NCBI GenBank assembly: GCA_036733285.1
Contig: DAINAU010000001.1
Coordinates: 18,954 to 82,953 of the forward strand
Length of the DNA stretch: 64,000 nt
DNA from: a bacterium
Lineage (GTDB): Bacteria > JAGOBX01
Reading direction: 5' to 3'
Part shown: positions 6,084-41,425 of the stretch, one piece after another
Layout: every line of letters starts with the position of its first letter
Numbering within the stretch: the stretch's first letter is position 1
Position numbers and translations under genes: made by a program
The notes under the pieces: generated by a model
What the model was told of the DNA's origin: nothing
What the model saw: only the letters and a program-made list of their open reading frames with translations
The model's database searches: none

Positions 6084-6289
6084 TCAAAACGCCTCCGGTT
6101 TTATTACTACATATTTGAGTTAGACGCAATTTCACAAAAAATGTTCGTATGTTTTTTCGGATGATATGTTATCTTTTATTCTCATATGCCCCGCCATAAT
6201 ATATAGTTTACCGATTATACGGTTGCATTTAAACCCAAATAACTTTTTATTAGGGTTTAAATATAACATCTTTAACAGATAGACTTATA

Positions 6290-6352: not shown

Positions 6353-7414
6353 TTATTCTTTGCTTGCTACAATAAAAAAATCTTTAGGCAAAGGAATTTG
6401 TAATTTCTTATTAATGACTTTCCCTTCAAATCTTGGAAAACGATCAAAAAACTTTTCTCCTGTTGTCAAATACATATTTGTCAATTTCACAGTATTATTA
6501 TTTATTTCAGCATAAAACACTAAATATCGGACATCGGAATGTCTTATTACAATATCATTTACGGCTGGAATTGGCAGCGGCGCGCGACTTGATGGAGCAA
6601 CAAGACCTAAATCAATTGTTGGCGACGACTGTAATTTCACTTCAATTAATTGATGTAATATATCAGGAAATCGCCCTGTATCTGAATAATCCTTATATCC
6701 CAAAGCACGACAAACTAATTTATATAAAACATCGCCCCGCGTACGTTCTCGCTCTTTTCCTGTATCTTCAAAACTTGTTCCAATTAAAGTTTTCATTTTT
6801 TCAAAAAGAAATGTTATAGGAATAATTTTGTTTATATCGGGAATCTCAGTTGGTTTATTATTTGTTAAATCTAAAATGATCAAAGTATTATGTACCAAAG
6901 TTAAAATATTATCAGTATCACTATTGGTAATTAATTCAGATTGTAAATCAGAGGCGCGGATTGTCGCTTGATATTTTTGTGTCAATGTTCCAGTCGTGTC
7001 AAGCTTGGCTAAAATATCGCCGGTTACTACTTTAACGCTCTCTATGATATTTTTCGATGACACTTTCATAATTACATATCTGCGGTTTACTGCAATATCT
7101 TCATTCCAAATTTGTAAATTATTAGATTTTTGAATATAGGTATCAAAATCTTGTCCAATAAATCGCGGATGAGTTTTTTTAAAAGTTTTTGGCAATGGAT
7201 ACCCTAATGTTTCACAAATTTTTTCTTTAACAACTTTCGATCGTGTTCTTAACGGCAAATCATTCAGGGATAAATTTTTTAATGTCCGATTTAAAATATA
7301 TTCTAATTGTTCAGATGCGTACCAACACTCAAAATGTCCATTTCTTATTTTATCGTAAATGGACAATTTATGTTTGTGAATGTTTTCTTTTACTTTTTCA
7401 ATTTCTTTTTCAAT
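6353..7414 (-). CDS. Putative Type II restriction endonuclease with a PD-(D/E)xK fold.
   Basis: The ORF-track frame 6353..7498 has a 5' extension that overlaps the upstream gene. The likely start is the internal ATG at 7414 (MDIEKEIEK...), which is preceded by AGAGGA. The motif GRFPDILHQLIEVKLQ matches PD...E-x-K. The gene lies immediately downstream of a methyltransferase gene. Confidence 0.5.
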   Translation of the reverse strand: MEKEIEKVKENIHKHKLSIYDKIRNGHFECWYASEQLEYILNRTLKNLSLNDLPLRTRSKVVKEKICETLGYPLPKTFKKTHPRFIGQDFDTYIQKSNNLQIWNEDIAVNRRYVIMKVSSKNIIESVKVVTGDILAKLDTTGTLTQKYQATIRASDLQSELITNSDTDNILTLVHNTLIILDLTNNKPTEIPDINKIIPITFLFEKMKTLIGTSFEDTGKERERTRGDVLYKLVCRALGYKDYSDTGRFPDILHQLIEVKLQSSPTIDLGLVAPSSRAPLPIPAVNDIVIRHSDVRYLVFYAEINNNTVKLTNMYLTTGEKFFDRFPRFEGKVINKKLQIPLPKDFFIVASKE

Positions 7415-7433
7415 ATCCATAATAGTCCTCTCG

Positions 7434-8420
7434 CTAAATACCATATACTTTGTATGCCAAAGCATTAATACGATTTTCAGTTTTGATTTTGTCGGCATTA
7501 TTATTAATTAACTCTTTTACTAATTTGATTATTTCTTTACATTCATTTTTACTTATATCGGGCAACGGATATTTTGCTACATATTGTGTAAAATATCGCC
7601 TTCTGCCTGAATATAATTTATTATTAAAACATAAGTCATGAAATTTTGTTAAAACTTCAGAATTCGACAAACCTAAAATTAAAAATAATAAATTTTCATC
7701 ATATTTATCATTGATAGTAATCCAATAACAATTCCCGTCAACAATAGAATTATTATTATCGAAAAAAAATTTTGGTTCGGGACTTATATCAGGAAAAATA
7801 ATTTTGGGTTCTTTCCAAGCATTAGGATTTTGAGGCACCCATATTTCATACCATTGCCGATTAGCTTGTATCAAATACGTTCTTTCTTCAAGTTTTTCTC
7901 GATACTGTTCTAAATATTTTTTTGCCTTTGGAAAATTTGATAATTCAATTGGCGTTCTTTTTCCGTTTTTATTGATATGAGTATATAATACATAACGTTT
8001 ATTCAATTTATTGGATTTACTTAACCACTTATTAGATTCATAACTTGACAAAATCGGTTTTAATAATTCCCTTTCGGGTCTAATTTCAGGCGGCAATTCA
8101 TCCCAATCATTTCTTATAAATACCGTATCTGCATTTGTCTTAATTCCTACTCTGACTTTTGCAACATCTGCAATTGTTTTGTTTGAATTATTTGTTATGG
8201 TTTCAATAAAATCATTTTCATTTTTTGTAACCAATTTCCAAGGTTCTTTGGATTTTGTTGATATATGAAAATGACCTGAATTAGCAACGTATATTGTTTG
8301 TCCAACTTGAAAACAACCTGTTTTTTCATTATGAATTATATCATAAATAGTATTTTCTTTTTCATATTTGGTAATGTTATTATCGCTATTTTTTTCATAT
8401 ATTCTATAAAAACGGGGCAT
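7434..8420 (-). CDS. C-terminal target-recognition part (TaqI_C-like TRD) of an N6-adenine DNA methyltransferase. It is encoded as a separate ORF from the catalytic part.
   Basis: The 328-aa product has TRD-like segments (VRVGIKTNADTVFI, GNCYWI) typical of M.TaqI/Eco57I-family C-terminal domains and no MTase catalytic motifs. It is 23 bp from the stop of the catalytic-domain ORF. The frame is restored by a 1-nt change in the A10 tract. Confidence 0.5.
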   Translation of the reverse strand: MPRFYRIYEKNSDNNITKYEKENTIYDIIHNEKTGCFQVGQTIYVANSGHFHISTKSKEPWKLVTKNENDFIETITNNSNKTIADVAKVRVGIKTNADTVFIRNDWDELPPEIRPERELLKPILSSYESNKWLSKSNKLNKRYVLYTHINKNGKRTPIELSNFPKAKKYLEQYREKLEERTYLIQANRQWYEIWVPQNPNAWKEPKIIFPDISPEPKFFFDNNNSIVDGNCYWITINDKYDENLLFLILGLSNSEVLTKFHDLCFNNKLYSGRRRYFTQYVAKYPLPDISKNECKEIIKLVKELINNNADKIKTENRINALAYKVYGI

Positions 8421-8443
8421 CTGTTTATCTTGTGTTTTATTTT

Positions 8444-9163
8444 TTAATATTTTTTTTTTCGGCCAAAAAAAATTGCCGGCAAAACTGCCGCTTCAAATAA
8501 TTTTGTATCGCCTAAATCAATAAGTTTAATAATTTCATAATTTGATTGCAAATAATTGCGTATGTTTTCACCGGCTCTGTTTGATATAAAACGATTAGAT
8601 GTGATAACACCGAGTAAACCATCATCTGATAAAATAGAAGTCATTGCAACTAAAAAAGCATGATACAAATCGACCCGGCCGGCAAGGTTAAATTTTTTAG
8701 ACAATTTCTGCGCTTTTTCAGAACCTAAAATTTGAGTTCTTACATATGGAGGATTTGCAATTATAACATCAATTTTATTTAAAATATCTAAATCAGAAGT
8801 TGTTTCTAAATCAAATAAACACGGCTGATTTTTTAATTTCCATTCGGGAATCATCTCCAAAAAATCAGCCGTGTTTAAATATAATTCTTTCAATTTAAAT
8901 TGTTTTAGCCGTTCGTTTGTTTTTTTTAGCGAATCTAAATCAAATTCAATTCCATAAATAGAAATATTTTTGTGAAATTTAACCGGAATATTATTTATAA
9001 ATGCAAGCAGTAATTCGCCATCGCCGCAAGAAGGGTCAAGAACATTTATTGTTTTATTACTATTTAATTCAATTTGATTTATAAGATTAATTGCAACATA
9101 ATTTGCTAATTGATTGGGAGTGAAATGAGCGCCTGACGTTTTTTGAGCAGAATATTTTTTCAT
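8444..9163 (-). CDS. Gamma-class N6-adenine DNA methyltransferase, catalytic domain (239 aa).
   Basis: GAHFTP (motif X), VLDPSCGDGELLL (motif I, AdoMet binding) and IIANPPYV (motif IV). The product ends ...AAVLPAIFFGRKKKY immediately before the A10 tract. Confidence 0.8.
   Translation of the reverse strand: MKKYSAQKTSGAHFTPNQLANYVAINLINQIELNSNKTINVLDPSCGDGELLLAFINNIPVKFHKNISIYGIEFDLDSLKKTNERLKQFKLKELYLNTADFLEMIPEWKLKNQPCLFDLETTSDLDILNKIDVIIANPPYVRTQILGSEKAQKLSKKFNLAGRVDLYHAFLVAMTSILSDDGLLGVITSNRFISNRAGENIRNYLQSNYEIIKLIDLGDTKLFEAAVLPAIFFGRKKKY
8450..8459. repeat. Homopolymeric T10 tract (A10 on the coding strand) at the junction of the two methyltransferase ORFs.
   Basis: Plus-strand positions 8450-8459 are ten consecutive T. 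They encode the KKK of the ...FFGRKKKY* C-terminus of the catalytic ORF. Confidence 0.9.
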
Positions 9164-9366
9164 AACTAAATAATAATATATAATATCATAATTAGCAAGT
9201 TAAAACCAATTATTGAAATCGGAGCGCCTATTTTTGTTAAGCCGCATTGAAAGTAACTGATATATATTTGTCAACTTTTCAATGACGATAAATATAGTTC
9301 TTTCGCCAATGATTCTACGCTTTTTATTTTACGCATTTTATGTTTTATTATTAGCGACAATTCTTT

Positions 9367-18107: not shown

Positions 18108-20195
18108 TTATGATTTATACACAAACCTCTTATCAACCGGCAATTCCACCGAAAATTTCACTCCGTTTTTTTCGTTTTTAAAATTAATTTTCCCGTTATG
18201 TTCTTCCATTATTTTTTGAGAGATTGTCAGACCAAGCCCGATTCCAGTGGATTTTGTCGTAAAAAAAGGATTGAAAATCTTGCTCTTTAAAGTCTCGTCG
18301 ATGTTTCCGCCGTTATTGAAAATTTCCACTATGCAAACCGTGTATTCGTTAGCCGTAAGATTATTGTCCTTAATCCTGACGTTTATTTCTATAAACGGAT
18401 CGCTTATTTCTTTCAAAGCGTCAACCGCGTTTAATAAAATATTTAAAAATACCCTGTTCAATTTATCCTCGTCGTAATTAACCAAAATTTTGTGCGCGCA
18501 ATATTTTCTTTCTAACTTAATGTTGTTGTCTTCCATTGATTTTCGAACGTATAACAGAGATTTTTCCAGCGTTTCAATTAAATTTTTGTTCTGTTTTTTT
18601 AATTGTATTTTATTAGTAAAATTCAAAAATTCCGTGACTATCTTATTTAAATCGTTAACTCCCTCGACTATTTTCGAGGCAATCTTGCTTTTTTCGGAAT
18701 CCGCCGAATCTGATAAATCTTTTTCAAGCAGAGACGCAAATCCCTCTATTGAACCGAGCGGATTGCGTATCTCGTGAGCGAGTCCGGCCGCCATTTCTCC
18801 TAACGAAGCGAGTTTGTCCCTGCGGTTCAATTCTTCTTCCATCTCCTTCATTTCAGTTATATCGTTGAATGACGCTATCATTCCTTTAATCAAACCGTAT
18901 TCGGTCTTAAGTTTTACAGTCGTCAATTCTATTTGCTTCACTTCAAGATTTTTTGCCACAAGCTGCGTCCTGTGATAAAACATATATTCTTCATTTTCTA
19001 TTTTTGTCTGTATCTGTTTATCGGGAAAAATATATATGTCCTGTCCGAGAGTTTTATCTAATAATTCGTTTTCATTATCGAATTTTAATAAAAGCAGAGC
19101 TTGCGTGTTTATGAATTTAATCTTTAATTCTTTGTCGAGAATCATAATTCCCAGCGGCAAATTTTTGAAAGTAAAATATAAATAATCTTTTATGCTTTCT
19201 ATTCTTTTATATAACGCCCTGTTTTTAAAAAGCAATTCAAGATATACTTTTACCGTTTTTATCAATTCGACGTCGCTAACGTTAAATGAATTTTTTTCAT
19301 AAAGTTTTGTCAAATAAATTATTAAATAACGTTCGTTTTCTATATGAACGTTTACCTTTAAAATATTCCTGATTTTTTTTAAATCCGCCGTTGATACCGC
19401 TTTATCCTTCGGACCAAACAATTCCGGTTCCTGAGATACTCTTATTATCCCTTTATTCAGCGCCGGAATATCTAAATCCTTTTCGTATTTATCGATTATT
19501 TCTCCCGTCATATTATCGTATACTATTCCGGCTCCGGCGTTGCAATTCATAATCTTAACTATTGAATTTGTCGTTACTTTTAATATTGATACAAGTTCGT
19601 AATCGAGTTTTAAACTATTTTTTATTTCATTTAATGTTACTATTTTTGACATCCTCTCGTATGCTCTTTGTTCCGCTTTCCTGTTTTCTTCGCTTGAAAA
19701 ACCGAGCATTATCGCGATTATCAATAAAGCTATAAATCTCGGCAGATGAGCTTGAACCTGCGGTCCGAATAAAATCACGTTTCTGGTTACCGGGTCAGGA
19801 CTTAAGTTATAAAGAATAAATATGAAAAGCGTGGTGCCGACGCTTCCGCGTATCCCGAAACTCATTGCTCCAGATATAATAGGTATGAAATATAAAAAGA
19901 AAAACGAAATGCTGTTATCGCCGGAATAGGTAACAGTAAAATGAACAAAAAAAACATAAATTTCAAGCAATAAAAGATTCGCTTTCGCGGATGGCAAAAT
20001 CGTTTTTAAAAACGGATCTATTATAAAAAATAAAAGCGCTATGATTAAAAACAAATAAAAATATTGAGTCGATAATCCGGTAAAAAAATTTAAAATTATA
20101 TAGAGAAGTATTACCGTCGCAAAAAGCGATATAAATAAAAATAAACCGCTTACTTCGCGGTTTTTCTTTAATATCCATTCTAAATATTTTTTCAT
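18108..20195 (-). CDS. Polytopic membrane sensor histidine kinase (PAS-HisKA-HATPase_c).
   Basis: Multiple N-terminal TM helices, a PAS-like region, an H-box (HEIRNPLGSIEGF), and N and G boxes (NAVDAL, GIGLGL). Confidence 0.8.
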   Translation of the reverse strand: MKKYLEWILKKNREVSGLFLFISLFATVILLYIILNFFTGLSTQYFYLFLIIALLFFIIDPFLKTILPSAKANLLLLEIYVFFVHFTVTYSGDNSISFFFLYFIPIISGAMSFGIRGSVGTTLFIFILYNLSPDPVTRNVILFGPQVQAHLPRFIALLIIAIMLGFSSEENRKAEQRAYERMSKIVTLNEIKNSLKLDYELVSILKVTTNSIVKIMNCNAGAGIVYDNMTGEIIDKYEKDLDIPALNKGIIRVSQEPELFGPKDKAVSTADLKKIRNILKVNVHIENERYLIIYLTKLYEKNSFNVSDVELIKTVKVYLELLFKNRALYKRIESIKDYLYFTFKNLPLGIMILDKELKIKFINTQALLLLKFDNENELLDKTLGQDIYIFPDKQIQTKIENEEYMFYHRTQLVAKNLEVKQIELTTVKLKTEYGLIKGMIASFNDITEMKEMEEELNRRDKLASLGEMAAGLAHEIRNPLGSIEGFASLLEKDLSDSADSEKSKIASKIVEGVNDLNKIVTEFLNFTNKIQLKKQNKNLIETLEKSLLYVRKSMEDNNIKLERKYCAHKILVNYDEDKLNRVFLNILLNAVDALKEISDPFIEINVRIKDNNLTANEYTVCIVEIFNNGGNIDETLKSKIFNPFFTTKSTGIGLGLTISQKIMEEHNGKINFKNEKNGVKFSVELPVDKRFVYKS

Positions 20196-21665: not shown

Positions 21666-22004
21666 GCTTTCGCGGTTACAGATTATTAAAACTTTTTGTT
21701 TTTAAGCTCTCGGAAATTGTTTCAATAATTTTAATTTATTAGAACAATTTCTGACTGCGTCCCCGCGACTTGTTTTTGTCGTCTGAATTTGATTGACTTC
21801 TTGCCTTAATTAATATAACTTTTTATCAATTAGCTTTTATAAAAAATATATTAACAGTTTAATTTGATTATAATTAATCCCGAATAATTCATTAGAGGCA
21901 GCGAGAAGTTTCTTAAAAATTAAAATGTTATATTGCGATTGAAATTCGCAATTTATATGAAAACTTCAATTGCATTTTTTAGATTAATACAACAGGAAAA
22001 AAAT

Positions 22005-24227
22005 ATGAATACTAACAAACTAAAACCTTATATTAAATTCGACGATGATAAAAAAAATATTTTTTATATCGCGCAAAATAAAAAATACCGGTATGCCGAC
22101 CCTGAAGAACAAATACGAAGCAAGGCGTATCTTGAATTAATCAATTACGGTTACGAGCCGAAACGCATTGATTTTGAAGTCGGTATTCCGCATAGAACTC
22201 CGAATATACTTGCGGATATTGTCGTTTATAACGATGATGATTTGAAAGACCCGCATATTGTCGTTGAATGTAAAAAACCGGAAGTATCCGAAGGCGAATT
22301 CAAGCAGGCGGTTGAACAGGGATTCGGAAACGCAAATTCGCTCAAAGCAAATTATCTTTGGATTACTTCGGGAATCAAAAACGAATATTTTAACGTAAAA
22401 GATTTTCCGTCAATGGAACGCGATGCAAACCGTTTATCGGATATCCCGCGTTTTGGTCAAAAAAAAATCGATAAAGCGCAGTTTTACAAAGGCGGAATAA
22501 ACGATAAAAGCGAACAGCGTAAAGATTTAACGACTTTAAACGAAAACGAATTAACCCGAATTTTTAAGCAGGCGCACGATGCGCTTTGGGCTGGCGGCAA
22601 ACGCAATCCTTCGGAAGCGTTCGACGAATTCGATAAACTTATTTTTTGTAAAATTTGGGATGAAAAAAAATTGCGTAAAAACGGAGAACCCTACGATTTT
22701 CAGGTTTTTAGCGGCGAGAAAAACGAACTGCTTTTGAAACGCATTCAAACAATTTACGACAAAGGCAAGGAAAGGGACCCTGAAGTTTTTAAAGATAATA
22801 TCCGGCTGAATCCATACGAACTTGAAACAGTAGTAAGTTATCTTGCCGGAATAAATTTAAGCGATACCGACCTTGACAGCAAAGGCAGGGCGTTTGAAAC
22901 ATTTATGGGAAGTTTTTTCCGCGGCGATTTTGGCGCTTTTTTTACGCCGCGTCCTATTGTAAAGTTTATTATTGAAAGTTTGCCGGTAACTAACGAAGAT
23001 ATTGTTTTGGATCCGTCCTGCGGCAGCGGCGGCTTTTTGCTATACGCGCTTGATAAAGTCCGGCGCGCCGCTGATAAAATGTCTGATGACGGCTATTTTA
23101 AAAAAGACAGCTCTAAACACTATAATTTTTGGCATAATTTTGCCGAATCAAATTTATTTGGAATTGAAATTTCCGAAAGCATTGCCCGCACCGCTAAAAT
23201 GAATATGATAATTCACGACGACGGACATACAAATGTCGTATCGCACGATGGACTTGACAGTATTTACTGGATGCGCGAAAAAACAAAAAATAAGGGTTTT
23301 GCGAAAAATAAATTTGATTATATTATCACAAATCCGCCTTTTGGTTCGTCGATTCAGTCGTCGGCTAAAGCGTATGTTAAAGAATACGATTTGGGCAAAA
23401 AAAATTATGAATGGATAGAGTTAAAATTAAAAAATAAAAATCCGAATAAAGACGAAGTTCGGGAGAGGCAAAGCTCTGAAGTTTTGTTTATCGAGCAGTG
23501 CTATAATTTTCTTAAACCGGGCGGAATACTCGCAATGGTAATACCCGACGGCATTTTGACAAATTCAAGTTTACAGTATGTCCGCGGCTGGATTGAAGAG
23601 CATTACAGGATTATTGCGGTTGTGTCAATGCCCCAGTCAGCTTTTCAGGCGACTGGCGCGGGCGTTAAAAGCTCGGTTATTTTTCTTGAAAAATATGAAG
23701 AATCCGAGACCGCGGCTATCCAAAAAATAAAAATTGAATTGCAGGATAAACTATTTGAAAACAAAAAATACGGTCCCTCGATTGAAAAAATTGAACGCGA
23801 AAAAAAAGATACGCTGAAAAATAATTTTGCGAAAATTAAAGAAATTAACGAATCGCTTGATAATCATTTAAAAGCCCTTGAAAATCAAGGAAATATTGAT
23901 AAATCTAAAAAATGCGGACTCGAAAAAAATGCAAAAGATAAAATCAAACAAATTGAAAAATCTGAAGAATACGCCGATTGGCGATGCCGCATTACAGACG
24001 AATTCAACGAGCGGATAAACGCTATTAAAGAAAATCTTCAGGAAGAATTTATCGAATCCGTGAAAAAGAAAATTACGGATTATCCTGTGTTTATGGCGAT
24101 TGCGGAAGACATCGGCTATGACGCGGCAGGCAGACCGACAAATAAAAACGAACTCGAAGATATTGCTAAAGAACTTTTAGCTTTTATCGAATCTGTAAAA
24201 AAAGGAACTGATTCTTTTTTCGCATAA
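22005..24227 (+). CDS. Fused restriction endonuclease and N6-adenine DNA methyltransferase (HsdR_N/Mrr-like PD-(D/E)xK domain plus gamma-class MTase plus coiled-coil C-terminal extension). BcgI-A-like Type IIB/IIG R-M subunit.
   Basis: The likely start is the ATG at 22005 (AGGAAA upstream); the ORF-track frame begins at 21933. The N-terminus has ADIVVYNDD...HIVVECKKP (D...E-x-K). The MTase motif I is LDPSCGSGGFLLYA and motif IV is IITNPPFGSS. An approximately 170-aa Lys/Glu-rich helical tail follows. Confidence 0.7.
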   Translation: MNTNKLKPYIKFDDDKKNIFYIAQNKKYRYADPEEQIRSKAYLELINYGYEPKRIDFEVGIPHRTPNILADIVVYNDDDLKDPHIVVECKKPEVSEGEFKQAVEQGFGNANSLKANYLWITSGIKNEYFNVKDFPSMERDANRLSDIPRFGQKKIDKAQFYKGGINDKSEQRKDLTTLNENELTRIFKQAHDALWAGGKRNPSEAFDEFDKLIFCKIWDEKKLRKNGEPYDFQVFSGEKNELLLKRIQTIYDKGKERDPEVFKDNIRLNPYELETVVSYLAGINLSDTDLDSKGRAFETFMGSFFRGDFGAFFTPRPIVKFIIESLPVTNEDIVLDPSCGSGGFLLYALDKVRRAADKMSDDGYFKKDSSKHYNFWHNFAESNLFGIEISESIARTAKMNMIIHDDGHTNVVSHDGLDSIYWMREKTKNKGFAKNKFDYIITNPPFGSSIQSSAKAYVKEYDLGKKNYEWIELKLKNKNPNKDEVRERQSSEVLFIEQCYNFLKPGGILAMVIPDGILTNSSLQYVRGWIEEHYRIIAVVSMPQSAFQATGAGVKSSVIFLEKYEESETAAIQKIKIELQDKLFENKKYGPSIEKIEREKKDTLKNNFAKIKEINESLDNHLKALENQGNIDKSKKCGLEKNAKDKIKQIEKSEEYADWRCRITDEFNERINAIKENLQEEFIESVKKKITDYPVFMAIAEDIGYDAAGRPTNKNELEDIAKELLAFIESVKKGTDSFFA

Positions 24228-24274
24228 GCTCCGGGGCAGATAAAAATAAGATTTTTACCGCGAACCGGAGCGAA

Positions 24275-25654
24275 ATGAAAGATAGGTTTGATCCGCTGTT
24301 TTATTCCGGCTGGCTTCTTGGTTTTTTTAAAAAATTAAAATTTAAGACTGTCAAGTTAAAAGACTTGACATTGTATCTTAAAAATGGATTTGCGGCTGGA
24401 CATAATGATCAGTCTTTTAACGAAAACGATATTATTCAGATAAGACCAACTAACATTAATTCCGACAATATGCTTGTATTTGATAAAAATATTTATATCA
24501 GCCGTAAAACTTTAAATTTAAAAAAATCTGATGTTTTGATTAAAAATGAAATTTTATTTAATAATACAAACAGTCAAGAATTAGTTGGAAAAACTTCTTT
24601 TTTTGATTTTGATAGTATTAATTTTTGTTCAAATCATATTACGAGGATAATGTGCGGCAATAAAATATTGCCCAAATATCTTTGGATAATTTTAAATTTT
24701 TATCAAAAAAATAAAATATTTTTCAATCTATGCACTAACTGGAATAATCAATCCGGCGTTAATATTAATGTCCTTGCGAATCTTCTTATACCTTTACCGG
24801 AAAAAAACACGCAAGAAAAAATCATATCCATATTTGAGAAATCTATTATCAATAAACAATCCAAAGAATCAAAAGCCCAAAAAATGCTCGATGGAATTGA
24901 CGATTATCTTCTTTCTGAATTGGGAATAAAACTTCCTAAAGAAAAACCAAATATTTTAAAAAACCGTATTTTTAAAACAAGCGTTAAAAATATTTCTGGC
25001 GGCAGGTTCGATCCTATTTATAACGATATATATTACTTAAAATTTGAAGAAAGTATCAAACAATCAAAATATAAATTGAAAAAAATTTTTGAATTATGTT
25101 ATGGGAAATCAGGAGTTGTTTATTCGGTCAACGATGAAGCGAAAGATGGAAAAGGAATATTACGCGCAAATAACATTGATTTATCAACTAATGAACTAAA
25201 TTTGTCAGATATAAAATTTATTTCAAACAATATATTTATTAGCTCTGATTTATTATTAAAAAAAAATGATATTTTGATGTGTTCGGCAAGCGGTAGTAAA
25301 GAACATGTTGGAAAGGTAGCTTATATTTGCGAGGATTTGAATCTATATTTTGGCGGATTTATGATGGTTTTACGCGGAAAAACAAGTATGTTGTTATCTA
25401 AATATTTGTTTGAATTTTTACGGAGCCTTTTTTTTAGAAAATATTTATTTCGTCAATTAGGCGGAACAAATATTAATAATTTAAATTTTCATATGATTTC
25501 CAACTTATTCATTCCCCTGCCTCCAATAGATGTTCAAAATAAAATAGCTGAAGCGATAAAAAAAATACGCGAAGAAGCGAAACGCCTGCGATTTGAGGCG
25601 TCGTCGGAATTAGAAAATGCAAAAAAAGAAATAGAGCGAATGCTTTTAAAATAG
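24275..25654 (+). CDS. hsdS: Restriction-modification specificity (S) subunit with two target-recognition domains.
   Basis: The 459-aa product has an N-terminal RFDPLFY motif, two TRD-like halves separated by a conserved central helix, and a C-terminal conserved helix (IAEAIKKIREEAKRL). Confidence 0.8.
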   Translation: MKDRFDPLFYSGWLLGFFKKLKFKTVKLKDLTLYLKNGFAAGHNDQSFNENDIIQIRPTNINSDNMLVFDKNIYISRKTLNLKKSDVLIKNEILFNNTNSQELVGKTSFFDFDSINFCSNHITRIMCGNKILPKYLWIILNFYQKNKIFFNLCTNWNNQSGVNINVLANLLIPLPEKNTQEKIISIFEKSIINKQSKESKAQKMLDGIDDYLLSELGIKLPKEKPNILKNRIFKTSVKNISGGRFDPIYNDIYYLKFEESIKQSKYKLKKIFELCYGKSGVVYSVNDEAKDGKGILRANNIDLSTNELNLSDIKFISNNIFISSDLLLKKNDILMCSASGSKEHVGKVAYICEDLNLYFGGFMMVLRGKTSMLLSKYLFEFLRSLFFRKYLFRQLGGTNINNLNFHMISNLFIPLPPIDVQNKIAEAIKKIREEAKRLRFEASSELENAKKEIERMLLK

Positions 25655-33325: not shown

Positions 33326-34306
33326 TTATTTTATATTTTCAATTAATTCTTTAAAAATAACGCTATTAACGACATATTTGGAAGTATTATTCGGCTCCTT
33401 AACATCGGAATAAATCGCTTCCCAATGTCTGCCGGTTCTAATTTCCGAATAAGTATCATAAATAATAACATATAATATTTTTTCAATATTAAATTTTTTC
33501 TTTAATAAATTTTCATCGGCAGTTTCTTTTAACATAAAAATTCTTTTAGCGTCTATTGCTTGGTTATCCTGCCCGCCGCCAGCCATATTCTGTTCTTTAT
33601 GCGCGCCAATAATTAATGTATTTTTAATTTTACATATTACATCGGGATATTTTAATTCGGTAACGCCCAAAATATTAAGTATTCCGTCAATTTTTTTTAC
33701 TTCTTTTTCGTCAATAAGCCAATCCCCGCTATTTGATATTTCTTTTTGTAATAAAAGTTTTTTGGAAAGCAAATCAAAAACAATTTTATCAAACATTCCC
33801 TTTCTTCGAGTAGGCGATTTAAGAATATATTTTGATTCTAAATTACTTAACATTATAGCAAAAAAATGATAATCAATATTTTTTATTATTTCAAATAATT
33901 GTAATGATTTTAACTGGGTTAATAATAATTCTTCATCTTTAAGCAATGAGTCTATTTGATTTAAACCTGAAATATTTAAAAGTAACCAACAAAATGATTC
34001 GATACCATTAACATTATTTCTTTTTTCTTTTATTTCTTTTAAAACAAGTTTTATATTTTCAATTGCAATATTTAATATTTTCTCGTCAATATTATCAATT
34101 GATAATTCATCTTTTTTTTTCAAATCATATAAATAAACGATATAATTTTTTATTTTATTTATTGCGTTTTTGTATTCTTCGCTGTAACGAAATTCAAATC
34201 CCATATCTTTAAAAATTTCTTGATAAACTGGATTTAGAAAAGCAATATTATTTATTCTATATTGTTTATTATTAAATTTATCAAAACATTCTTGCGGCAG
34301 TAGCAT
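33326..34306 (-). CDS. Hypothetical protein. Candidate restriction endonuclease of the two-MTase R-M module.
   Basis: The 326-aa product has no motif I recognise. It lies 10 bp downstream of, and in the same orientation as, two DNA MTase genes. Confidence 0.3.
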   Translation of the reverse strand: MLLPQECFDKFNNKQYRINNIAFLNPVYQEIFKDMGFEFRYSEEYKNAINKIKNYIVYLYDLKKKDELSIDNIDEKILNIAIENIKLVLKEIKEKRNNVNGIESFCWLLLNISGLNQIDSLLKDEELLLTQLKSLQLFEIIKNIDYHFFAIMLSNLESKYILKSPTRRKGMFDKIVFDLLSKKLLLQKEISNSGDWLIDEKEVKKIDGILNILGVTELKYPDVICKIKNTLIIGAHKEQNMAGGGQDNQAIDAKRIFMLKETADENLLKKKFNIEKILYVIIYDTYSEIRTGRHWEAIYSDVKEPNNTSKYVVNSVIFKELIENIK

Positions 34307-34316
34307 AAGGACACCT

Positions 34317-35768
34317 CTAATTAAAACTTAACTCTAATTGATTTGATTTTTCACCAATACAGTTTGTATTTAAAAAGTCTAAAACTTTATTTGCATTTTT
34401 TTCTGTTATTAGTTTAGAAAATCGAACTTTCATTTTTGGGGATAATTTTATCGGATATGTTTCTAATATTTTTTTAGCCTGCGTTAATCCTAAATATTTT
34501 CTCACATATTCGCTATTAGAATATTTATATGAAGTCATAAATTCACTGTCCGTAATTTCACGAAGATATTCTAAAATCAAATTAAAATAATCTTTAATTA
34601 TTTTTTGCTCGTCGATTAAAATATTTTCTTCAAAAAATATCTGAATTGGGTGAGTTCTAAATTTGCTTTTAGTTACTAAAATTCCATCGCAATCAAAAAT
34701 CTGTTTTGTAATATACAATCCAGCGCGTCCATCTTGAGAACCGGTATCGACAGTTCTAATAAATAAAATATTATTTTTGATTGTATTATAAATCAAATCA
34801 TTTACTTTTCTTTCTGTCTTTACATATTGTCCATTTTCAAATTTATTAGCGTCTAATAAATCAATAATTTTATTGCCGTTTATTATTGTTTTTTCTTCAA
34901 GATAAAACGAAAATTTAATTTTTTCGTTTTGAGTATATAAATCTAAAAAATCTGACAGTTCGTTACCTGCCCTATATGAATTTTTATATTTTAAAATATA
35001 TTTCTTTTCTACAGTTTTACAGTTAATTTTAACGCCATTAAAAATAATATCTTTTTTGTTTGTTTCATTTTTTCGTGTAAAATTACAAACCACAACATTT
35101 GTTCCAGTAAATTCAAAAATTTCTTTTTCAAATATTATTGCTTTATTCATAGTATAATACTGAAAGAAATCTTTCCGTATTTTATTTGAAACAGATGCGC
35201 CAAATAAAAAATTTGATGGAATTATATAAATCATTTTATATATTTTATTCCTTAAATCATTAATTAAAGCCAATTGATATAAATCTTGATATCCTTCATT
35301 AGATTTATCATTAAAATATTCAAAATTGGTTTTGAATCTTTCTTTGTTTTTTACAATATATCCTAAATATAAATATGGTGGATTTGTTATATGAAAAACC
35401 GGCTTCTGGAATTTTTTTAAAAATTTAATTGGATAATTTTTGATAGTATCATTTAAAAAAATATTTTTTTTTGCAATATCTTCCGGTATTCCTTTCGCCA
35501 TAGTATTTAATAATAGTTTATCAAAATTTTCTTTTTGAATTTCAAACATATAAATATTGTTTTTGAAAAATTCTATTTTTTTTTCAGGTTCTATATAATC
35601 TAAAATTGGCAGTATGAGATTTCCTTCTCCGGCATAAAGATCAATCCATACATACTCATTTATATTATCTTTTATCCAAGGAAAAATATATTCTTTAAAT
35701 AATTCAATTGGAGTAAAGTGTTCTCCATAAAATCGTTTGGTTTCTTTATTATTTAAAATTTCGTTCAT
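34317..35768 (-). CDS. Gamma-class N6-adenine DNA methyltransferase with a C-terminal recognition region.
   Basis: GEHFTP (motif X), IDLYAGEGNL (motif I) and HITNPPYL (motif IV). The 483-aa product overlaps the upstream MTase stop as ATGA. Confidence 0.75.
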   Translation of the reverse strand: MNEILNNKETKRFYGEHFTPIELFKEYIFPWIKDNINEYVWIDLYAGEGNLILPILDYIEPEKKIEFFKNNIYMFEIQKENFDKLLLNTMAKGIPEDIAKKNIFLNDTIKNYPIKFLKKFQKPVFHITNPPYLYLGYIVKNKERFKTNFEYFNDKSNEGYQDLYQLALINDLRNKIYKMIYIIPSNFLFGASVSNKIRKDFFQYYTMNKAIIFEKEIFEFTGTNVVVCNFTRKNETNKKDIIFNGVKINCKTVEKKYILKYKNSYRAGNELSDFLDLYTQNEKIKFSFYLEEKTIINGNKIIDLLDANKFENGQYVKTERKVNDLIYNTIKNNILFIRTVDTGSQDGRAGLYITKQIFDCDGILVTKSKFRTHPIQIFFEENILIDEQKIIKDYFNLILEYLREITDSEFMTSYKYSNSEYVRKYLGLTQAKKILETYPIKLSPKMKVRFSKLITEKNANKVLDFLNTNCIGEKSNQLELSFN

Positions 35769-36454
35769 TTTATTTCTTTTAAGCGTATTTTCGTTATTTT
35801 ACAAAAATCTGAATCAATTTCAATCCCGATATACTTTCTGTTTAATTTTTTACAAGCGACAAGCGTTGTTCCGACTCCGGCAAAACAATCCAATACATTA
35901 TTGTTTTCTTGTGAAGCAATTTGTATGATATTTTCAATTAATTTAATTGGTTTTTGAGTAATATGCTGTTTCTTATCTTTTTTAAAATTTGATTGCGGTT
36001 GCGCAAATTCCCAAACATCGTTATATAATAATTTTTCTGAATTATTTTGTTCCCAAATGTTTAATTTGTTTTTTCCTTTTGCAAACATCAACAATCCTTC
36101 CCAATTATTTCTTAATCTGTCAAAAGGAGTAAATTTGTAATAATTTTTTTTATACCATACAATAAAATTTTTGTAGGCAAAACAATTTTTTTCTCCAATA
36201 TCTATGATATAACTGCTTAGTCTTACATCGCAAAAGCAAAAAAAAAATCCTTTATGAATTTTTTCTGAAAGTATAGCAAAGATATCAGATAACCAATTAA
36301 TATAATCATTTAGTGTTTTCCATTGATTATCCCATTTTATTGATTTTAGGTTGTTATAATACGGTGGATCAATTATAATTAAGTCAATAGAATTATCGTC
36401 AATTTTTTTTAACAATTTCTGGCAATCGCCGCAATACAAAATATTTGTTTTCAT
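35765..36454 (-). CDS. Beta-class DNA methyltransferase (N4-cytosine or N6-adenine; the DPPY motif precedes the FxGxG motif).
   Basis: LIIIDPPYY (motif IV) lies N-terminal and LDCFAGVGTTLVA (motif I) lies C-terminal, which is the beta-class permutation. The product is 229 aa. Confidence 0.8.
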   Translation of the reverse strand: MKTNILYCGDCQKLLKKIDDNSIDLIIIDPPYYNNLKSIKWDNQWKTLNDYINWLSDIFAILSEKIHKGFFFCFCDVRLSSYIIDIGEKNCFAYKNFIVWYKKNYYKFTPFDRLRNNWEGLLMFAKGKNKLNIWEQNNSEKLLYNDVWEFAQPQSNFKKDKKQHITQKPIKLIENIIQIASQENNNVLDCFAGVGTTLVACKKLNRKYIGIEIDSDFCKITKIRLKEIK

Positions 36455-38371: not shown

Positions 38372-38526
38372 AAATCAAAACAAATCATAATCGTAACAAT
38401 ATTTTTGAAAGCGGTTTAAGAATAAACTCCTCCCGCGAAAGCGATAGAATTTCAAAAAATAATCTCGTTTTATTGTTCAGATGTTGTAATCAAACTGTTA
38501 AAACGGTTTGAAAAAGGCGTATTTTT

Positions 38527-38550
38527 TTATTAACCCCGCAATTGATTGCG
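38527..38550. promoter_or_regulatory. Perfect GC-rich 11-bp inverted repeat (AACCCCGCAAT tg ATTGCGGGGTT) in the AT-rich intergenic region upstream of dacB. Candidate operator or structural hairpin.
   Basis: The palindrome is seen directly. No U-tract follows on either strand, so I do not call it a terminator. Confidence 0.3.
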
Positions 38551-38621
38551 GGGTTAATGATAGAATATCCATAAAATAAACCGTTTTAACGGTTTTAAAA
38601 ATGTTCCTGAATAGTAACGTT

Positions 38622-40030: not shown

Positions 40031-40123
40031 ACTCCTTTAAAATTTTGCGTCTTATCAAAAATATTCTTGGAGTTTCAGCAAGAATATTTTTGATAAGATT
40101 AATAGCTTTTCCGCAAATGCGGC

Positions 40124-41425
40124 TTATGTTTTTAATTTTTTTTGTTTAGCCGCAGGAAACAGTATATTGTTAAGAATTAATCTGTATCCCTGCGAATTTT
40201 TGTGAAAACTAAGATTCGTATGCTCGGCTCCGACTCTATGCGCGTAGTCTTCCGGGTCGTGTCCGCCCAAATAAGTTATAGTTCCTTTCCCGAATTTTCT
40301 ATGGAGATATTTAACGCATTTATTTCCTATTGTTTTTCCCATTATGATACATTCTTTTTTTATTTTTTCTTCGCGGAACGCTGTTGTCAATCCGAAAAAT
40401 CCTTTTACTATTCTATTATGATTTTGAGTGAGCATAGTCGGAACCTGGTCGAATTTTGCCGAAAAATCAAATAACTCAAAAGGCTGATCTTCGATTCTTT
40501 TCGGAGTATTGACCCAATTGTAATCTATATCTGATTTGGGATTAAAATTAGGATCGCTTATAACCGTAAAATTTTCAAAAACAAGACATTTTGAATAATC
40601 GATTTTTTTCATATAATCCGGATCGAATGGAGTGCCGTCGATTTCCTGCGCTATATAATCCGTTCCTTCGAGCGACAACGCTATGTCAAGAGCTTCCGGC
40701 GCCGAACACATTGCAAATAAAAATCCTCCGTTTGAAACGTAATTTTTTATCGCTTTTGAAACCGAAGTTTTTTCTTCGCAAACAGAATTGAACCCTTGCG
40801 TTATCGCAAATTTTCTGTATTCCGCTACGCGCGTCATATACCATGGAGAGTTTTGAAATGATCTGTAGAACTTATCGTATTGTCCGGTAAAATCCTCGTG
40901 ATGCAGATGAAGCCAGTCATAATCGCTTAGACCCGACTTCAATATCTTGTCATCCCATATTTTATCGTAAGGAACTTCCGCATACGTAAGCGCGAGAGTA
41001 ACCGCGTCATCCCACGGATTATTAGTCGAAGGAGCATAGACCGCGATTTTCGGAGCTTTTTCAAGCTCAATCTTATCCATATTTTCTTCTTGAATCGTCA
41101 ATTCGATTTGATTCAATTGTTTGTCGTCGATTATTTCGTAATATACGCCTGATATTTTAAGGTTTTTTACGGCTTCATCGGAATACGGCAGAAGAAACGA
41201 ACCGTCTCTGTAATTCAAAAGCCAGTAAATTTTTCCGGCGGAATTTTTTTCCGCTAATGATTTATACGCGGCTCCGTATGCTTTCAAATGATCCGTTTGT
41301 TTTTCGTCCATCGGAACAAGTATGTTGTTTGAAAAAACAATCGAATTATATAAGAATAAAAATACCGCCGAAAATATTGTTTTTATCAGAATCTTTTTTT
41401 TTTCTATTAACATTAATATTAACAT
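40124..41425 (-). CDS. Secreted hypothetical protein, possibly with a class-I glutamine-amidotransferase-like fold.
   Basis: N-terminal hydrophobic segment. The GGFLFAMCSAPEALD segment is reminiscent of a GATase1/DJ-1 nucleophile elbow. The match is weak. Confidence 0.35.
   Translation of the reverse strand: MLILMLIEKKKILIKTIFSAVFLFLYNSIVFSNNILVPMDEKQTDHLKAYGAAYKSLAEKNSAGKIYWLLNYRDGSFLLPYSDEAVKNLKISGVYYEIIDDKQLNQIELTIQEENMDKIELEKAPKIAVYAPSTNNPWDDAVTLALTYAEVPYDKIWDDKILKSGLSDYDWLHLHHEDFTGQYDKFYRSFQNSPWYMTRVAEYRKFAITQGFNSVCEEKTSVSKAIKNYVSNGGFLFAMCSAPEALDIALSLEGTDYIAQEIDGTPFDPDYMKKIDYSKCLVFENFTVISDPNFNPKSDIDYNWVNTPKRIEDQPFELFDFSAKFDQVPTMLTQNHNRIVKGFFGLTTAFREEKIKKECIIMGKTIGNKCVKYLHRKFGKGTITYLGGHDPEDYAHRVGAEHTNLSFHKNSQGYRLILNNILFPAAKQKKLKT

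Follow-up and report, generated by a model that had tools for sequence, protein, structure and literature searches.

A fixed frameshift at a run of ten adenines in the methylase gene of a ClaI/BseCI-type restriction-modification operon from an uncultured AT-rich bacterium

How can a bacterium keep a restriction endonuclease gene directly behind a methylase gene whose reading frame is broken? The question is raised by a locus on contig DAINAU010000001.1 (NCBI GenBank assembly GCA_036733285.1), of which we analysed the 64,000 nucleotides from position 18,954 to 82,953 of the forward strand (the window; all coordinates below are counted from its first letter). Here the methyltransferase (MTase) gene of a Type II restriction-modification (R-M) pair, M, is split at a run of ten A (A10) on its coding strand, and the endonuclease gene, R, follows in tandem. 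An earlier note, made from the sequence alone, had seen in this layout a classic phase-variable mod gene, with a homopolymer sequencing error as the alternative. We find that the frameshift is real, and we favour, at a probability of about 0.55, a reading in which it is a fixed lesion in a recently acquired and now decaying M-R operon, whose host survives through leakage at the A10, through polarity on R, or through both.

One methylase gene in two reading frames

The methylase part of the locus consists of the following elements:

7434..9163, minus strand: the whole frameshifted M gene, a 576-amino-acid (aa) methyltransferase of the M.BseCI/ClaI family if the run had 11 A
8444..9163, minus strand: N-terminal MTase open reading frame (ORF), 239 aa, with the S-adenosylmethionine-binding/catalytic region (motif I DPSCGDG, motif IV NPPY), ending GRKKKY before its stop codon; NCBI HPN29332.1
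8450..8459, minus strand: the A10 homopolymer (T10 on the plus strand), coding the Lys-Lys-Lys of FFG-R-K-K-K; the frameshift site
7434..8420, minus strand: C-terminal MTase ORF, 328 aa from its first ATG, the TaqI_C-type target-recognition part, in the -1 frame relative to the N-terminal ORF; NCBI HPN29331.1

Across the break, the minus-strand codons read GGC CGA AAA AAA AAA TAT TAA, with exactly ten A at 8459..8450, and the 239-aa ORF ends inside the run, so the methylase is split precisely where the earlier note had placed the break. The ATG of the 328-aa ORF lies 23 nucleotides (nt) past this stop in the other frame, again as had been described, and its frame is open already from 8492. One inserted A joins the halves into a single ORF of 576 aa (the note had put it at about 580) reading ...GRKKKILKNKTQDKQMPRFY..., and with nine A the frame does stop early, terminating after GRKKNIKK. 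Tract lengths of A8, A11 and A14 are in frame and A10 is out of frame; as in a contingency locus, a repeat within the coding region sets the reading frame by its length.

The two ORFs match consecutive halves of one 579-position PADLOC profile, MTase_II (PDLC03226), the 239-aa ORF at positions 10-236 and the 328-aa ORF at positions 246-571, and in Pfam the former matches Eco57I and N6_Mtase and the latter TaqI_C, all of which are found together in the repaired protein. When aligned to M.BseCI (PDB 7qw5, E 2.2e-171), residues 4-574 of the repaired protein fall on residues 10-572 at ~49% identity over 570 residues, colinear through the junction, which reads PAIFFGRKKKILKNKTQDKQMPRFYRIYE and is aligned unbroken. 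By these matches M is an M.BseCI/ClaI-type N6-adenine DNA methyltransferase of the gamma class, in keeping with the earlier assignment to the Type II N6-adenine MTases with a TaqI_C specificity domain, although in the genomic sequence this domain lies in a separate -1-frame ORF and not on the same polypeptide. M.BseCI recognises and methylates ATCGAT (PMC5502580), and its identity to M suggests the same specificity for the latter, with N6-methyladenine (m6A) formed at the second adenine.

Both M halves are undamaged: an alignment of 34 family sequences has 111 invariant columns, and every one of them is retained. In the same alignment, the family consensus at the junction runs from a conserved strand, AAVLPAIFxGRKK, through a linker whose length varies, to FxRIYE. 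An AlphaFold (AF2) model of the repaired protein, with a predicted local distance difference test (pLDDT) score of 83 and a predicted template modelling score (pTM) of 0.81, places the frameshift in a loop of residues 237-250, which joins strand 229-236 to strand 251-258 and whose pLDDT drops under 50 at positions 241-244.

The break thus falls in a flexible loop of variable length, and one may ask whether a catalytic fragment and a specificity fragment, the second re-initiated at the ATG that follows close behind in the right frame, act as a two-subunit methylase. This ATG has no Shine-Dalgarno (SD) motif before it, a fact that is not decisive, as most genes here lack one: an SD-like motif (GGAG, GAGG or AGGA) precedes just 9 of the 39 long ORFs in the window, or about a quarter (background 7%). 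In relatives, however, its place is taken by Val, Pro, Ala or still other amino acids, which marks it as a chance Met. Among the ~5000 M homologues found, the nearest of which is just 58% identical, 119 of the 120 best are single polypeptides 554-633 aa long, the one exception being the window's own 328-aa half, so that no split homologue occurs among these 120. Moreover, strand 251-258 is modelled as pairing beside strand 229-236, and the N-terminal fragment would then miss part of its sheet. With neither a conserved split nor a start signal belonging to the second half, we consider a two-subunit enzyme very improbable, and HPN29332.1 and HPN29331.1 should be annotated as a single gene with a frameshift instead of a pair of proteins.

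The A10 tract across assemblies and among other homopolymers

We retrieved variant contigs by exact-protein look-ups, and the tract lengths given here are those of consensus assemblies, in which a minority ON subpopulation would not show. Exact copies of the 239-aa and 328-aa proteins occur on 8-9 contigs, drawn from ENA, JGI, Logan and NCBI, and the tract-spanning contigs fetched were ERZ27257428 (a 104-kb contig), SRR5007225, JGI 3300025871, JGI 3300009783 and ERZ27257483. All six loci that span the tract (L001, L002, L003, L004, L005 and L006) have A10, and they represent at least four sequence variants differing by single-nucleotide polymorphisms (SNPs). In a collection of 15 billion proteins, neither the fused 576-aa product of A11 nor the products of A8, A9, A12, A13 or A14 were found, and a near-identical full-length M was likewise absent from the homology search, where such a protein would rank first. 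The fused M protein had no match in a genome contig collection, in which a scan with polynucleotide phosphorylase (PNPase) found a sole match, a relative of 71% identity without the R-M pair. Scans of metagenome contigs with the protein, and with a DNA pattern allowing a variable A gap, gave no match, this collection evidently being without these contigs.

These data bear on the suspicion that the true genome has A11 and that A10 is a sequencing or assembly error. Homopolymers are classic sites of such errors, and with A11 the gene would be entirely normal. A calling error is nonetheless unlikely, because A10 is present in every spanning contig and variant and because the other 26 runs of at least nine A or T in the window sit in intact long ORFs with their frames kept, A10 being the sole frame-breaker of the 27. 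The same tract recurs in ENA k141 contigs, in JGI and Logan assemblies and in metagenome-assembled genomes (MAGs) at NCBI, from several samples and in SNP-differing variants, and the fused product is nowhere to be found. We give this explanation next to no weight. The A10 frameshift is real and fixed in all sampled populations, and the genomic state of M is OFF.

Three assemblies break inside the R-M locus: L007 (1497 bp) ends at 8657, and L005 (2112 bp) and L006 (1241 bp) start at 8638. The locus is contiguous in the other assemblies, and the breaks may reflect low coverage or strain heterogeneity.

The same data also bear on the claim of phase variation, according to which slipped-strand mispairing would switch M, and via polarity R, between ON (A11 or A8) and OFF (A10), with the sampled populations being mostly OFF. 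Much in the locus would suit such a switch, as an A10 in a coding region is inherently hypermutable, a single step restores the frame, both halves of M are undamaged, and a tandem M-R order without a controller (C) protein would let one tract silence both genes. Homopolymer-controlled R-M genes, Type II included, are well documented in Helicobacter (H. pylori), Neisseria, Campylobacter and Mycoplasma (M. agalactiae), and M shares with these a mononucleotide run in R-M coding sequence where one slip changes the frame. It differs from them in that its tract shows no length variation and is an ordinary mid-gene run of Lys codons coding conserved residues.

Indeed, no variation in length between strains or populations was seen at the level of the six assembled loci, where A10 is found in all assemblies and in at least four variants, nor was any variant-length product found in the protein collection. 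The tract is also undistinctive in its surroundings. The window (33% GC) contains 27 A/T runs of at least nine bases, or one per ~2.4 kb, compared with roughly 8 expected from base composition by our estimate; five of them are of length 10, and nearly all are coding-strand poly(A), lying inside genes or at their 5' ends (ATGAAAAAAAAA...). All but the A10 are in frame, including a T10 at 36238-36247 (coding strand, GFFFCF) inside the gene of another MTase, an N6_N4_Mtase, whose protein cluster contains no truncated or length variants. We also asked if MTase genes in this DNA are particularly given to homopolymers and rejected this, since two of the five 10-mers in such genes is not a significant share. 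Rather than a dedicated repeat, A10 codes the conserved Arg-Lys-Lys(-Lys) patch of the family in mid-gene, and the nearest relative, L010 (58% identity, 29% GC), has AGG AAA AAA AAC, an in-frame A8, at the same site, so that the tract exceeds neither the genomic background nor its coding need. Finally, the sister variants gather damaging changes in R (see below), unlike what would be predicted for a maintained switch.

Thus, the claim of a classic phase-variable mod gene finds no support beyond the slippery tract itself, and we regard a contingency locus as doubtful; nothing supports active phase variation, with a minority ON subpopulation being possible in consensus data.

An intact endonuclease behind the broken methylase

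Downstream and upstream of M, the operon comprises:

6353..7420, minus strand: restriction endonuclease gene R, 355 aa, beginning MDIEKE; PADLOC REase_II, NCBI HPN29330.1
9164..9366, minus strand: AT-rich intergenic region of 203 bp upstream of M, the only obvious place for an operon promoter, holding no C gene
6222..6267, minus strand: imperfect 21-nt inverted repeat ~90 nt past the R stop codon, possibly the end of the transcription unit

The ORF of R spans 6353..7498, and its true start is at 7420, as in NCBI HPN29330.1. The protein matches PADLOC REase_II over nearly the whole profile (E 2.4e-136, positions 19-357 of 359), and no match was found in Pfam, NCBIfam or PDB sequence searches. 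It has 3594 homologues of ~350 aa at 53-62% identity, several of which are named restriction endonuclease and some of which share genomes with M.BseCI homologues, for example in Aneurinibacillus and Alicyclobacillus. In a 30-sequence alignment, the R of the window strain retains all 88 invariant columns. The locus thus has the separate endonuclease gene beside its methylase that is typical of Type II systems, and judging from its sequence R is intact in the window strain, as the earlier note had maintained.

The ATG of R lies 13 nt beyond the stop codon of M (at 7434) and is preceded by an SD-like GAGAGGA at 7426-7432. Promoter-like hexamers are present in the 9164..9366 region but are no commoner than in shuffled sequence, and at the locus as a whole we found no C gene and no above-chance promoter signal for R. 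The nearest relative, L010, has the same tandem M-R order without a controller gene, and in two Bacillales-type relatives (Aneurinibacillus and a MAG) a helix-turn-helix (HTH) controller gene adjoins R on the strand opposite to M. Compared with M.BseCI of Bacillus stearothermophilus (7qw5) and the ClaI/BanIII-type ATCGAT systems, the window pair has the same Pfam architecture, the same AAVLPAIFFG-basic patch at the junction and a partner gene of the endonuclease family found beside such methylases; it differs in its frameshifted methylase gene and in its tandem order without an HTH controller, and its specificity is a prediction from sequence.

An intact R makes the state of M consequential. 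The window contains 20 ATCGAT sites, where base composition predicts 21.5 and a Markov model 31, and since the site is not avoided, an active R without M would be harmful. We had considered that avoidance of ATCGAT might make the loss of M harmless, and rejected this for the same reason. The objection raised in the earlier note, that an OFF methylase would be lethal beside an active R, is therefore a fair one, but the evidence suggests answers to it, namely a leaky A10, the dependence of R on transcription through M, and damaged R alleles in sister variants.

We propose that a tandem M-R Type II operon of the ClaI/BseCI family (ATCGAT, m6A), having been acquired horizontally, would have suffered a one-base frameshift in M, most simply A11 to A10, at the AT-rich coding of the conserved Arg-Lys-Lys(-Lys) patch, in what is predicted to be a flexible loop that follows the final conserved strand of the catalytic region. 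The A10 would be leaky, as RNA polymerase may add an A and ribosomes may slide on AAA repeats, and both kinds of slippage would give the needed -1 frame correction and hence some full-length M. R, for its part, begins 13 nt past the stop codon of M and has neither a controller gene nor a promoter signal stronger than expected by chance, so that premature termination within M would depress the expression of R by polarity. Survival is probably explained by leaky slippage, by polarity, or by both.

This proposal has precedents. In transcription, the prevailing errors on A/T runs are single-base insertions, which become exponentially more frequent as the run lengthens (PMC5574713); ribosomes slide along stretches of A (PMC5009743), and in Citrobacter rodentium an A11 tract in tssM1 allows ~20% frame restoration by transcriptional slippage (PMC4256274). 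The window gene resembles tssM1 and the poly(A) frameshifts of Buchnera and Blochmannia in being split at 10-11 A and rescuable by an RNA polymerase that adds an A, and differs from them in that its slippage is conjectural, its split is not conserved in relatives and its neighbour R shows signs of decay. Polarity has been reported in a frameshifted methylase gene, mboIIM2 (PMC6260861); in this engineered case (deltaA356; Koscielniak et al. 2018), a one-base deletion in an A/T run of a methylase was partly rescued by polymerase slippage and accompanied by intracistronic polarity. That case differs in being a laboratory construct in E. coli, transcribed by T7 or host RNA polymerase, with the host enzyme rescuing poly(A) of up to 8 bases poorly.

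If the tract leaks, the leak may itself have been selected. In such a recoded system, slippage and/or -1 sliding on A10 would make a fixed, low share of full-length M next to a truncated catalytic fragment, and the R-M pair would be fully functional. The tract suits this: it is a slippery run long enough and with a favoured direction of shift, it contains an A_AAA_AAA heptamer in the zero frame, and the needed correction, whether made by one extra A in the mRNA or by a ribosomal shift of -1, is of the sort that prevails on runs of A. Furthermore, the allele is fixed, R is intact and ATCGAT is undepleted, so that some protection seems required, and tssM1 offers a precedent. Against this stands the lack of conservation, the out-of-frame arrangement being shared neither by L010, with its in-frame A8, nor by the 119 of the best 120 homologues that are single ORFs. 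Nor is there a stimulatory RNA element, as the folding of 8380-8500 does not depart from that of shuffled sequence (z = -0.3) and shows no stable structure 3' of the A run. The replacement of conserved R residues, and the five amino-acid changes to one silent change described below, suggest relaxed constraint. We consider selected recoding unlikely.

Directly 5' of the GGCCG-A10 lies a small GC-rich hairpin (8465-8490, minus strand; CGGCAGTTTTGCCG, followed by GCAA and T8). Its U8 could pair with the A run, a pairing seen in the minimum-free-energy fold and not in the centroid, and terminator-like sites of this kind occur in the region at the number expected by chance.

The SNPs that separate the variants are concentrated in the R-M locus. 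Over the 59.3 kb compared between an ENA contig and the window there are three SNPs, two of them in R (Y34H and L39S), and other samples add Y115H in R, K65T in M, a second replacement in M that is S12R in the numbering of the C-terminal ORF, and one silent change. Altogether, six of the seven SNP positions seen lie within the 2.8-kb R-M locus, five of these six being amino-acid changes and one silent. The only SNP outside the locus, at 40901 (A>G on the plus strand), separates the window from the ENA and JGI 3300009780 contigs (~59 kb compared). In the R family, L39 is nearly invariant and Y115 invariant, and the window allele has the family residue at both. All the SNP variants share A10, and from this it follows that the frameshift preceded the changes in R and was not lethal. 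The R-M system may thus be under relaxed constraint and decaying, with sister variants on the A10 background being hit at conserved R residues, in a direction of decay that we infer.

A pattern of relaxed constraint would also be expected if M were dispensable, that is, if another MTase, for example a TCGA-specific one or one elsewhere in the genome, modified the same adenine, or if R were silent, in which case the frameshift would be a neutral pseudogenisation. Three other DNA MTase genes lie within the window, and TCGA is not avoided in it. Nothing links these three to ATCGAT or TCGA, though, and R keeps all of its 88 family-invariant residues in the window strain, so we judge neutral loss of M quite improbable.

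With regard to its origin, the R-M segment has a GC content of 27-28%, compared with 32-36% in its flanks. The closest genome found, L008 (labelled Ca. Dependentiae, from a sludge digester), has a PNPase 71% identical to that of the window, and its synteny with the window stops exactly after the SpoIIE/HAMP phosphatase gene (window 9164-9366 versus L008 12330-13363). Past this gene, L008 has aroA (5-enolpyruvylshikimate-3-phosphate synthase), and the window has the R-M pair and a 2638-aa alpha-2-macroglobulin-like gene. Several palindromes are depleted in the window (observed/expected: CTAG 0.06, GTAC 0.08, GGCC 0.14, GATC 0.22, CATG 0.28), and hexamers such as ACTAGT, AGTACT, TCTAGA and TGTACA are absent from it, with ~21 occurrences expected; TCGA (1.08) and ATCGAT are not avoided. 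A search around the R-M pair for flanking direct repeats or marks of mobility yielded only short AT-rich chance matches. The low GC content, the absence of the pair from L008 and the lack of avoidance of TCGA and ATCGAT all fit a recent acquisition, and the operon was probably acquired horizontally by this uncultured AT-rich bacterium.

Several points weigh against a leaky and decaying operon as we have proposed it. Leakiness, polarity and loss of activity are things that we infer, and one reporter study saw little slippage of E. coli RNA polymerase on poly(A) of 8 bases or fewer (PMC6260861). Any decay must be very recent, as the M halves and the R of the window strain keep every family-invariant residue; for the same reason, a functional recoded system is possible. 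The SNPs are few, and those two that the ENA contig has in R are 16 nt apart and may be a single event. L005 to L007 are short contigs, for which the comparison is confined to the R-M locus without its flanks. Lastly, a MTase of the window or one elsewhere might protect ATCGAT, which would make a leak unnecessary.

A second inverted repeat within the gene, a perfect one of 19 nt with a 24-nt loop (8816-8877, minus strand), lies inside the N-terminal M ORF at codons ~96-116. Its RNA has a folding energy of -30.3 kcal/mol (z = -7.8 versus shuffles), and with the UUUAUUUGAUUU that follows, it resembles a terminator, though one that lies within coding sequence; the 64 kb contain a single further perfect hairpin of this size, located between genes. 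Its second arm falls in a variable, low-pLDDT part of the protein, and it is not conserved, being absent from the same place in relatives.

It is conceivable, if improbable, that in this controller-less operon the A10 tract is itself the regulator, with slippage setting a low and noisy level of full-length M and termination in M throttling R via polarity. If so, one homopolymer would tune the M:R balance without a change in the DNA, and the 19-bp hairpin at 8816-8877 might add a layer of attenuation.

On the favoured reading of a fixed lesion in a decaying operon, the locus would illustrate from nature how Type II R-M systems break down when a genome is rich in AT, with poly(A) coding turning a conserved Lys-Lys patch into a hot spot of mutation. 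The order of events, M broken first and R damaged afterwards, is the supposedly lethal one, and yet the cell survives. The event is nevertheless of a well-known kind and modest in interest.

Other features of the window

Further MTase genes are found in two places:

21957-25654, plus strand: a Type I-like M+S pair, made up of a 756-aa HSDR_N_2 + N6_Mtase fusion (PADLOC MTase_I, E 3e-160) and then a 459-aa HsdS-like subunit
33326-36454, minus strand: a second methylase cluster upstream of recA, with an N6_N4_Mtase, an N6_Mtase and a 326-aa protein
35765-36454, minus strand: the N6_N4_Mtase of this cluster, 229 aa, carrying the T10 at 36238-36247
34317-35768, minus strand: the N6_Mtase, 483 aa, the first 4 nt of its gene overlapping the end of that of the N6_N4_Mtase

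No HsdR gene adjoins the Type I-like pair, the next gene being cobQ-like. The 326-aa protein of the second cluster has no Pfam or PADLOC match and is possibly an endonuclease. Rfam gave no RNA family in the whole 64-kb window. Two further inverted repeats were observed, a perfect one of 20 nt with a 9-nt loop at 40050-40098, in the gap between two minus-strand genes, and, ~1.5 kb from it, an imperfect one of 51 nt (76% complementary) at 38492-38595.

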